Assembly (NCBI GenBank): GCA_048359995.1
Contig: DBGCPK010000017.1
Location: 137,240 to 201,239 of the forward strand
Direction of reading: 5' to 3'
DNA from: Bacilli bacterium
GTDB taxonomy: Bacteria; Bacillota_I; Bacilli_A; RFN20; CAG-449
DNA: 64,000 nucleotides
The notes under the pieces are model-generated. The model had not been told where the DNA came from, did not search any database, and worked only from the letters and a program-made list of their open reading frames with translations. Below, one piece after another: positions 32,863-39,849 of the stretch. Position 1 is the first letter of the stretch, and each line of letters starts with the position of its first letter. Both the position numbers and the translations under genes were made by a program.

Positions 32863-32891
32863 TTGACATCGCTATTCGGTATACCTATAAT
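32863..32891 (+). promoter_or_regulatory. Consensus sigma-A promoter for the regulator-potABCD operon
   Basis: TTGACA, 17-nt spacer, TATAAT. Confidence 0.5.
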
Positions 32892-38614: not shown

Positions 38615-38715
38615 ATCGTTGACGGATTGTTGAAAAATACATCGATCGTCTAAGAAAAAAGCCCCGAGATCAGGGGCTTTTTGGTTTATTTTCAAGATGG
38701 AGCTAGCGACGGGAA
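38615..38715. repeat. 101-bp direct repeat, copy A (contains an 18-nt copy of the tRNA-Gly 3' end)
   Basis: Matches 39693..39793 at 98 of 101 positions. Includes the GCCCCGAGATCAGGGGC terminator hairpin and TGGAGCtAGCGACGGGAA. Confidence 0.85.
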
Positions 38716-38761
38716 ACAAGTATTTAATGGGGATATTGCAATAGCAATATCGATTTTACAT

Positions 38762-38790
38762 TTGACAAGTTTAAATTTTTGACATATAAT
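38762..38790 (+). promoter_or_regulatory. Consensus sigma-A promoter, antisense to the small peptide gene (candidate antitoxin sRNA promoter)
   Basis: TTGACA, 17-nt spacer, TATAAT. It is followed by a stem-loop at 38792..38828. Confidence 0.55.
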
Positions 38791-38846
38791 AATAGCGAAG
38801 AGTCAGAGAGAACCCCACTTCGCTATTCAATGGGAACTCTGATTTT

Positions 38847-38924
38847 TTATTTTATCAAGAGAATGAGTAGAATAATTATAAGAATTAAGAAGAAATATTT
38901 AAATAAATCCTTTAAGTCTTTCAT
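38847..38924 (-). CDS. 25-aa hydrophobic peptide, type I toxin-like
   Basis: Product MKDLKDLFKYFFLILIIILLILLIK. Strong RBS AAAGGGGGTGAGAGT-ATG. One TM helix with charged ends. Confidence 0.5.
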   Translation of the reverse strand: MKDLKDLFKYFFLILIIILLILLIK

Positions 38925-38929
38925 ACTCT

Positions 38930-38949
38930 CACCCCCTTTCATGGGGGTG
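38930..38949 (-). promoter_or_regulatory. Shine-Dalgarno-sequestering hairpin in the 5' UTR of the peptide mRNA
   Basis: Minus strand reads CACCCCC-ATGAAA-GGGGGTG. The 3' arm is the SD. Confidence 0.45.
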
Positions 38950-38996
38950 TCTCTCTGACCCGAGTTTTTTAACGTCGTTTTCTTTCGACAATTATC

Positions 38997-39026
38997 ATCA
39001 TAATGAGAGGAATGGGAAAAAGTCAA
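38997..39026 (-). promoter_or_regulatory. Putative promoter of the peptide mRNA
   Basis: Minus strand TTGACT, 18-nt spacer, TATGAT. Lies about 65 nt upstream of the ATG. Confidence 0.35.
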
Positions 39027-39067
39027 TGACTTTTCGAAAAGTTCATATTCGAAATCGGTGCTGACTT

Positions 39068-39260
39068 TCAACGTTCCTTTTTCTTCACGACCGGCACCCC
39101 ATACATCGCTAACGGAAGAGTGATTGTAAGATTCTTAGGTTTCCAGTAAATTGTTTTTGTAAGTGAACCATCTTTTTTGACGATTTTAAAATAAGATCTT
39201 TCAGGTAATTCTTTGAGTGTGCAAATACCGATGAAATCACGTGATACTTTTTTTTGCCAT
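39068..39260 (-). pseudogene. RBS-preceded ORF broken at an A8 homopolymer (frameshifted or phase-variable small gene)
   Basis: AGGAGGT, 8-nt spacer, ATG GCA then A8. Frame 0 stops after 7 codons. The +1 frame stays open for about 60 codons (VSRDFIGICTLKELPERSYFKIVKKDG...). Confidence 0.3.
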
Positions 39261-39334: not shown

Positions 39335-39607
39335 TTACTCAATTAAGTAGTAATCTCCGATTATTGATTGTAAATGTTCTTTGAGAACCTTTACAACTGT
39401 TGGGTTGGTAACCGAAAGGTTACCTTTTTTGATGTTATCGAGAAAGATCTTTTCCAAAGGATTACTTGGATTAGGGCTTACCATCTGCTGATAAAAACTA
39501 TTGTTGATTGAGTTATTATCGCCGATCTGAATCTGTTCGGATTGCGGAGAAACGATCGGTGCGTATTTATTTTTTAAGATTCGGTTTAAAGCGGATATTA
39601 AAGACAT
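39335..39607 (-). CDS. Hypothetical small protein inside the islet
   Basis: ORF is open to 39694. Start is uncertain because of a weak RBS. No recognisable motif. Confidence 0.3.
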   Translation of the reverse strand: MSLISALNRILKNKYAPIVSPQSEQIQIGDNNSINNSFYQQMVSPNPSNPLEKIFLDNIKKGNLSVTNPTVVKVLKEHLQSIIGDYYLIE

Positions 39608-39692
39608 CTCTCTGAAATTGGGACATTCTTCTACGAAAGTAACGGAAGAAGTATATATCCACGTGAAAGAAGAGAGAAGAAAAGTTGCGGTC

Positions 39693-39793
39693 ATCGTCGA
39701 CGGATTGTTGAAAAATACATCGATCGTCTAAGAAAAAAGCCCCGAGATCAGGGGCTTTTTGGTTTATTTTCGAGATGGAGCGAGCGACGGGAA
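39693..39793. repeat. 101-bp direct repeat, copy B (overlaps the genuine tRNA-Gly 3' end)
   Basis: See copy A. The repeat continues into the intact tRNA body. Confidence 0.85.
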
Positions 39794-39849
39794 TCGAACC
39801 CGCATAGCAACCTTGGCAAGGTTGTGTTCTACCACTGAACTACGCTCGC
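39776..39849 (-). tRNA. tRNA-Gly (anticodon GCC)
   Basis: 74-nt cloverleaf by hand fold. Acceptor GCGAGCG/CGCTCGC, T-loop GGTTCGATTCC, anticodon loop TTGCCAA, encoded CCA. Confidence 0.9.

Follow-up and report, generated by a model that had tools for sequence, protein, structure and literature searches.

Does a hydrophobic peptide of 25 amino acids (aa), encoded in a low-GC islet next to a tRNA-Gly gene of a Bacilli bacterium (GTDB lineage Bacillota_I, Bacilli_A, RFN20, CAG-449), represent the toxin of a type I toxin-antitoxin module, in which an antisense RNA controls the toxin mRNA? The stretch of DNA analyzed here, hereinafter the window, comprises 64,000 nucleotides (nt) of assembly GCA_048359995.1 (contig DBGCPK010000017.1, positions 137,240 to 201,239 of the forward strand), and all coordinates given below are positions within it. 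An initial annotation of the window, made from the sequence alone, had proposed such a module at 38762-39026. Type I modules are badly under-annotated, given that their peptides are below gene-calling limits, and are almost unexplored in uncultured gut Firmicutes-like bacteria. Every sequence-testable prediction of the type I reading held, and the reading is thus supported at this level. We consider it probable that the locus is a new type I toxin-antitoxin module that works like bsrG/SR4 of Bacillus subtilis and resides in a decayed element.

A hydrophobic peptide preceded by an occluded Shine-Dalgarno sequence

The candidate toxin, MKDLKDLFKYFFLILIIILLILLIK, is encoded on the minus strand (codons from 38924 to 38850, stop codon at 38849..38847; the coordinates of all features are collected in Table 1), where the ORF track behind the initial annotation had merged it into a 74-codon open reading frame (ORF) with an alternative start. 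We find it to be the final 25 codons of a TTG-initiated ORF at 38847..39071. The peptide consists of a short charged N-terminus followed by a 15-residue Leu/Ile/Phe helix, ends in a single Lys, contains neither Pro nor Gly, and reaches a best 15-aa Kyte-Doolittle mean of 3.61. Immediately 5' of the ATG is the Shine-Dalgarno (SD) sequence AAAGGGGGTGAGAGT; taken as AAAGGGGGTGA, the SD is 4 nt upstream of the ATG (7 nt from the G-run). When the 573 ORFs of 15-60 aa that start with ATG on either strand of the window were filtered for a 15-aa Kyte-Doolittle mean of at least 2.8 plus an exact SD match of at least 5 nt, the candidate toxin ORF was the sole survivor; the same filter applied to 361 kb of unrelated loci from phages and integrative and conjugative elements (ICE) returned one match. 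The expectation that routine annotation would miss the peptide was borne out: gene callers had called its ORF on none of the 20-odd contigs examined, and its sequence is absent from the searchable literature.

A putative toxin promoter, TTGACT-N18-TATGAT, had been placed about 65 nt upstream of the peptide gene. The promoter scan recovered it with 10 of the 12 hexamer positions matching the consensus, at a distance that implies a 5' untranslated region (UTR) of ~66 nt. Both hexamers are the same in every related contig (see below), with one C/T difference within the spacer. An 8-9-bp palindrome, GAAAAGTCA/TGACTTTT(T)C, overlaps the -35 element (39018-39036) and could be an operator or a weak terminator.

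The strong SD had been described as buried in a perfect 7-bp hairpin, and this hairpin is indeed present, with the G-run of the SD making up its 3' arm. Folding of the 5' UTR agrees with the occlusion that the initial annotation had postulated: the ensemble probability of the SD being unpaired is 0.0004, compared with a median of 0.48 and a minimum of 0.007 for 40 long SD-preceded ORFs of the window, and the candidate toxin SD is the most occluded of the SDs compared. The predicted toxin mRNA folds at -59.6 kcal/mol, compared with -40.5 ± 4.3 kcal/mol for shuffled sequences (z = -4.4), and none of the 200 shuffles folds as well. In both the minimum-free-energy and the centroid structures, a 12-bp helix joins GGGUCAGAGAGA of the 5' UTR to UCUCUCUGACUC of the 3' UTR, and the SD hairpin stacks on this long-range helix; the two elements are predicted together in all three alleles of the locus described below. 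Taken together, the features of the locus exceed chance.

Two other roles of this region were considered and rejected. The SD hairpin does not qualify as an intrinsic terminator because no U-run follows it; the terminator at 38656-38682 is a possible 3' end of the toxin mRNA. The initial annotation had stated that its proposal would have to be abandoned should the peptide prove to be the leader of a larger gene. This was not seen, given that no gene lies downstream, where just a terminator, an att-like tRNA fragment and the antisense promoter are found.

A consensus promoter and a short antisense RNA on the opposite strand

The perfect convergent promoter reported on the plus strand, TTGACA-N17-TATAAT, was confirmed by the promoter scan at all 12 hexamer positions, and is closer to the consensus than the toxin promoter. 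With at most one mismatch allowed, the 64 kb contain three copies of this motif where 0.17 would be expected; since one of the three drives the tRNA-Gly gene, consensus matches in the window mark real strong promoters. A second perfect copy is located at 32863-32891 (plus strand), and the window contains no further one. Just upstream of the antisense -35 element, there is a palindrome, GATATTGCAATAGCAATATC (38732-38751), which could be an operator or a weak terminator.

The predicted antisense RNA, ~55-65 nt in length, would form one long hairpin, with an outer stem GAAGAGUCAGAG/CUCUGAUUUUUU (38797-38808 / 38837-38848) followed by a U-run; this terminator-like combination is kept in three alleles. 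This RNA matches the toxin stop codon and 3' UTR with full complementarity, and the stretch that it covers includes the 3' arm of the long-range helix. The initial annotation had additionally placed a stable stem-loop at 38792..38828, directly after the antisense promoter. A 10-bp stem-loop does exist there, but it is shifted by one base (38791..38827) and is allele-specific: most of its 5' arm lies upstream of the expected start (~38797), and only 5-6 bp of its stem are left in the other two alleles. It therefore does not count among the conserved parts of the antisense RNA and probably lies outside it. In the allele present in the window, a linked flank single-nucleotide polymorphism (A at 38791, not G) completes the perfect 10-bp inverted repeat.

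Comparison with known type I systems

In most type I toxin mRNAs the SD is sequestered, in some of them through pairing of the 5' UTR with the 3' UTR (PMC5416894), and toxins of 19-26 aa are known, with the toxicity of IbsC requiring just 15 residues (PMC8309996). The locus displays the generic features of such systems at the sequence level, namely a small hydrophobic SD-preceded ORF, an antisense promoter and terminator, and an occluding mRNA fold. An Rfam scan of the locus with an E-value threshold yielded a single match with E < 0.01, to RF01412 (BsrG). It covers 38950..38844 of the toxin strand and scores 26.4 bits, whereas the gathering score is 55 (E = 1.7e-4 to 3.2e-4; model positions 35-145 of 259). 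In this match, the SD stem-loop of the BsrG model (uCAUCcCCuauuGAAaGGgGUGaUG..AUG) is aligned with ACACCCCCAUGAAAGGGGGUGAGAGUAUG, and the start codon and ORF are aligned as well.

Probing of the bsrG mRNA has shown that nt 1-35 pair with nt 232-262 (P1) and that the SD is located in the stem-loop SL1 atop P1 (PMC3834814). By pairing with the 3' part of this mRNA, SR4 releases the 5' arm; it makes the SD more tightly sequestered, stimulates RNase III-dependent decay, and is transcribed from a promoter stronger than that of bsrG (PMC3834814); its recognition loop is its terminator loop (PMC6562991). The locus described here resembles bsrG/SR4, which belongs to the SPbeta prophage, in the convergent arrangement of the genes, with complementarity between the antitoxin and the 3' part of the toxin mRNA; in the predicted 5'-3' helix that closes the toxin mRNA, with the SD stem-loop directly on top; in the G-rich SD (AAAGGGG(G)UGA) that pairs with a C-run; in the stronger antitoxin promoter; in the mobile-element location; and, as proposed here, in the use of the antitoxin terminator loop for recognition. 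There are, however, differences: BsrG has 38 aa and a polar cationic C-tail whereas the peptide here has 25 aa, a charged N-terminus and no such tail; SR4 is ~180 nt long, compared with ~60 nt for the antisense RNA here; and the SD hairpin of bsrG grows from 4 to 8 bp on SR4 binding whereas that found here already comprises 7 bp when no antitoxin is bound. The locus does not pass as a member of the BsrG family, given that the gathering score is missed and that peptide length and layout differ. Judged by sequence, the locus is like bsrG/SR4 in design and not demonstrably of that family. The convergent type I geometry claimed initially is upheld, with BsrG as the best Rfam match (albeit below threshold), a bsrG-like 5'-3' helix and the stronger antisense promoter.

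Other systems share individual traits with the locus. In txpA/RatA and yonT/SR6 of B. subtilis, the antisense RNA is likewise convergent and 3'-overlapping, the location is of the prophage type, and RNase III-dependent decay is the mechanism that would be expected here too; TxpA and YonT (58-59 aa) are unrelated to the peptide, the locus has no Rfam or Pfam match to them, and RatA and SR6 are longer than the RNA predicted here. The fst/RNAII system (par, pAD1) has a convergent short (~65 nt) antitoxin and an SD in a 5' stem-loop, and both Fst and the peptide start with MKDL. Nevertheless, the peptide has neither a match to the Fst_toxin Pfam profile nor the APxxxG motif of the Fst/Ldr group, and, unlike in fst/RNAII, the two RNAs of the locus have 5' segments that form direct repeats and do not complement each other. 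The shoB/OhsC and ibsC/SibC pairs of Escherichia coli encode peptides of 19-26 aa in which a hydrophobic run comes after a polar N-terminus, as here, but are proteobacterial and differ in antisense geometry; the Rfam match of the locus to SIB_RNA is at chance level (E = 0.9). The hok mRNA is inert owing to a long-distance 5'-3' interaction together with SD sequestration. An inert full-length mRNA of this kind, found as well in aapA1/IsoA1 (PMC5416894), is also predicted for the locus; in hok/Sok and aapA1/IsoA1, the antitoxin targets the 5' region of the 3'-processed mRNA whereas here the antisense gene overlaps the 3' UTR. The locus has no Hok/Gef Pfam match and no mok-like leader ORF with its own SD.

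Three alleles of the antisense hairpin apex

The window is identical to a human-gut metagenome scaffold (L001), and the locus was found on 13 further contigs from other samples (human-gut metagenome assemblies). All of these contigs but one (L031) agree in promoter hexamers, 5' UTR, SD hairpin, ORF and both long-range arms; L031 carries a D6V replacement in the peptide (the ORF is the same in the other 12 of the 13), two extra G in the SD run and, in the antisense promoter, TTTACA in place of TTGACA. The contigs diverge by ~0.2% overall, with two hotspots, namely a poly-A run in a neighboring gene for a 63-aa protein and a 20-29-nt patch in the antisense hairpin. Within the module, changes cluster only in the apex of this hairpin, and the hairpin is preserved.

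The patch comes in three alleles, namely A (the window and L001), B (L002, L013 and L014) and C (eight contigs, one of them in nine samples). These alleles have 16-20 positions in common and differ in length while the DNA around them is ~99.8% identical; between A and C, there is one substitution in ~555 nt outside the patch. All alleles keep the antisense outer stem and the CCCC/GGR closing segment, UCGCU is conserved inside each of them, and the flanks beside the loop are invariant (ATCAGAG ... GGGGTTCTCTCTGACTCTTCGCTAT). For duplexes formed by the loops alone, the predicted energies are -32 to -45 kcal/mol when the pair is cognate and -10 to -13 kcal/mol when it is not. A search for a donor of the patch alleles in the 64-kb window and the fetched loci found merely chance-level short matches.

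We read the three patch alleles as alternative recognition-loop specificities. The three-allele recognition loop is the one unusual aspect of the module and offers a natural experiment on the evolution of antisense specificity. The further suggestion that the apical loop of the antitoxin is a hypervariable specificity cassette, with at least three mutually non-pairing alleles among the strains of one gut species, is a possible but doubtful one. If true, it would imply diversifying selection or localized replacement creating orthogonal RNA-antitoxin immunity types, a parallel to plasmid incompatibility loops, but within a chromosomal toxin-antitoxin module.

Homologue searches

A BLASTN search with the locus against phage and plasmid collections gave no match. 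Pattern scans of IMG/VR found no match for the SD hairpin and one irrelevant match for the peptide pattern; scans of the JGI metagenomes returned none and then three irrelevant matches; and a pattern scan of one genome per GTDB species produced 14 matches, which is at chance level, none of them homologous and none from the source species. Querying 5.8 billion predicted proteins with the neighboring 63-aa and 119-aa ORFs retrieved only this species. One of the chance pattern matches is found in a Synergistaceae metagenome-assembled genome (JAISUL010000059.1; L016, 2350-2480, minus strand), where a C-run, GAAA, GGGGGTGAGAGC and ATG follow one another in an arrangement much like the one described here. 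A simple scan of that locus detected no sigma-70-type promoter, sense or antisense; the ATG begins a 31-aa helical hydrophobic peptide, MKKFAKLAKLALTLLRLALVLAELIRLVKMF, which may be an unrelated unannotated type I-like toxin.

Weighing the type I reading against the alternatives

Several observations weigh against a type I module. The search of toxin families by peptide profile that the initial annotation had suggested came out negative: in Pfam and NCBIfam, with E-values up to 10, neither Fst nor Hok nor any other toxin family was matched, and the sole profile matches, to phospholamban, reflect transmembrane composition. The antisense terminator, a weak stem with a large loop, went unflagged in the terminator scan. 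Constraint folding leaves the SD hairpin closed, both with the antisense region occupied and with it free. The BsrG gathering score is not reached, and the likeness to BsrG is partly forced, since any SD/anti-SD hairpin resembles another. The identity of the ORF among the contigs is weak evidence by itself because these diverge so little overall. Finally, the phage, plasmid, IMG/VR, GTDB-species and JGI searches revealed no relative outside one species.

An alternative is a genuine small membrane peptide under cis-antisense control that is not a toxin, such as a holin-like or exclusion accessory or a modulator of membrane proteins. The sequence evidence for expression and control applies to such a peptide just as well, no toxin family matches, and the single C-terminal Lys is not the cationic tail typical of many type I toxins (PMC8309996). 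We nevertheless consider this unlikely: a near-perfect SD that is almost wholly occluded, a 5'-3' lock and a consensus antisense promoter constitute the characterized type I pattern (PMC3834814, PMC5416894), such control is generally unneeded by non-toxic small proteins, and all partner genes of the islet are decayed. Decay could also mean that nothing functional is made at all and that leftover promoters and hairpins of a dead element flank an A/T-rich ORF by coincidence. The islet is clearly decaying, the divergence is too low to demonstrate selection, and homologues were not found elsewhere in the databases searched; yet the joint rarity of the features, the z-score of the fold and the Rfam match to BsrG, along with the confinement of changes to the hairpin apex in a manner that preserves the hairpin, render a mere relic improbable.

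Alternatively, the plus-strand hairpin RNA might itself be the functional product, as a trans-acting guide or decoy small RNA of the element with strain-specific targets, the peptide being secondary. The consensus promoter and the conserved stem would then frame a replaceable 20-29-nt loop, with UCGCU conserved within each allele. However, no partner protein survives in the islet, neither a target nor a donor of the loops was detected beyond chance matches in the 64-kb window or the fetched loci, and the SD lock and the 5'-3' helix of the opposite strand would be left unexplained, which makes an autonomous small RNA highly improbable. Least probable of all, in our estimation, is that the product is a 74-aa tail-anchored membrane protein, initiated at the TTG at 39071 and translationally coupled to the upstream 63-aa gene by the overlap of stop and start, with the internal SD, ATG and hairpin being incidental. 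The peptide frame is open for 95 codons upstream of the stop, for which we estimate a chance of ~0.03 at this base composition, and the TTG overlaps the TGA of the 63-aa gene (TTGA, 39068-39071). Nonetheless, no usable SD precedes the TTG, as had been noted initially; each of the three substitutions in the 49-codon extension changes the encoded residue (S>F, K>R, C>F); the GG insertion in L031 frameshifts the long frame and spares the 25-codon ORF; the upstream 63-aa gene is out of frame in most contigs (A8 or A9 runs); and the 74-aa product was never called by gene callers on any contig.

A possible mechanism

For the favored type I module, we propose the following course of events. The full-length toxin mRNA would be stable but translationally inert. 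An abundant, short-lived antisense RNA would first meet the complementary 3' UTR hairpin via its apical loop, and this contact would zip up along the 3' UTR into a duplex exceeding 50 bp (~-100 kcal/mol) that RNase III could cleave, with destruction of the mRNA. If the element or the antisense supply were lost or shut down, processed or refolded mRNA would be translated and the peptide would damage the membrane; damage upon loss would favor retention of the DNA, and type I modules are known to stabilize prophages of Clostridioides difficile (PMC7699646). We also considered a switch by which CACCCCC, once released by antisense binding, would close the SD, and rejected it: folding with and without the antisense constraint yields a closed SD hairpin in either case. 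According to constraint folding, CUCUUGA, located where the ORF ends, can serve as a new partner for the freed 5' arm. Since the hairpin is closed either way, activation would need processing or another trigger, as in hok, tisB and aapA1.

If this interpretation is correct, the locus would add a new toxin family that uses the experimentally dissected RNA architecture of bsrG/SR4, and would neatly illustrate how an addiction module can outlive the mobile element that carried it. Its parts could become compact orthogonal RNA-controlled kill switches or counter-selection markers.

The islet is a likely remnant of an integrative element

The islet in which the initial annotation had located the peptide was recognized as a low-GC, repeat-bounded remnant of ~1 kb at a tRNA-Gly(GCC) gene (39776-39849, minus strand), between potD and a thioredoxin gene, with a GC content of 33-35% compared with 46% for the window. 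Within the 101-nt direct repeat that bounds it, an integrase-like ORF is represented by its final 13 codons and the tRNA by its 3' 18 nt (att-like), with a bidirectional terminator present as well. These tRNA-containing repeats, the deviant GC content and an integrase present merely as a 3' remnant are the features of an integrative element, and the islet looks like the remnant of one. The integrase remnant carries what we take to be tyrosine-recombinase motifs; a Pfam search with the 37-aa integrase fragment gave no match. In the window, the integrase and a 71-aa gene are truncated and the 63-aa gene is frameshifted while the peptide ORF, the UTR and both promoters are intact.

Table 1. Features of the candidate module and of the surrounding islet
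Feature	Position in the window	Strand	Basis or remarks
Candidate toxin MKDLKDLFKYFFLILIIILLILLIK, 25 codons + stop	38847..38924	-	ORF listing, small-ORF filter
Putative toxin promoter, TTGACT-N18-TATGAT, 10/12	38997..39026	-	promoter scan
Predicted toxin 5' UTR, ~66 nt	38925..38990	-	start inferred from -10 position; folds
SD-sequestering hairpin CACCCCC-AUGAAA-GGGGGUG, 3' arm = SD	38930..38949	-	sequence, fold, aligned to SL1 of Rfam BsrG
Predicted long-range helix, 5' arm GGGUCAGAGAGA, directly 5' of the SD hairpin	38950..38961	-	inverted repeat; minimum-free-energy and centroid structures
Predicted long-range helix, 3' arm UCUCUCUGACUC, toxin 3' UTR	38800..38811	-	inverted repeat, folds
Antisense (antitoxin) promoter, TTGACA-N17-TATAAT, 12/12	38762..38790	+	promoter scan
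Predicted antisense RNA, ~55-65 nt, one long hairpin	38797..38853	+	folds, three-allele consensus fold; ends inferred
Hypervariable patch, apical part of the antisense hairpin	38817..38836	both	20 nt here (allele A); 28 and 29 nt in alleles B and C
101-nt direct repeat, left copy	38615..38715	+	integrase 3' end, terminator 38656-38682, tRNA-Gly 3' 18 nt (38698-38715)
101-nt direct repeat, right copy, 97% identical	39693..39793	+	runs into intact tRNA-Gly(GCC)
63-aa gene	39068..39260	-	frameshifted by A8 run (39248-39255)
71-aa gene (P0004), 3' remnant	39335..39497	-	N-terminus deleted; fused into spurious 119-aa ORF
Tyrosine-recombinase-like gene, presumed 3' remnant (...LGHSSTKVTEEVYIHV...VDGLLKNTSIV*)	39591..39731	+	sequence reading

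Fuller islets in other samples contain an extra 1.57 kb, inserted at window position ~39496 (L032, 423-1990; L079), with a 113-aa membrane-anchored ORF and a KilA-N gene. The window has the deleted form, and this deletion gave rise to the spurious 119-aa ORF. A link between KilA-N and the module was considered and rejected, given that KilA-N has thousands of phage and ICE relatives and that none of the 45 fetched loci contains the toxin module, the 63-aa gene or the 71-aa gene. An AlphaFold model of the 63-aa protein is all-beta but of poor quality, with a pLDDT of 52. The poly-A run after the ATG (39260) of this gene consists of A7, A8, A9 or A10 depending on the sample, and the gene is in frame in some samples; this could be phase variation, transcriptional slippage or decay.

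The islet is probably the product of tandem integrations: the extension of the 101-nt repeat past the tRNA into the integrase end and the terminator suggests that two related elements integrated in tandem and that a deletion followed. Many short-read contigs end precisely at the 101-nt repeat.

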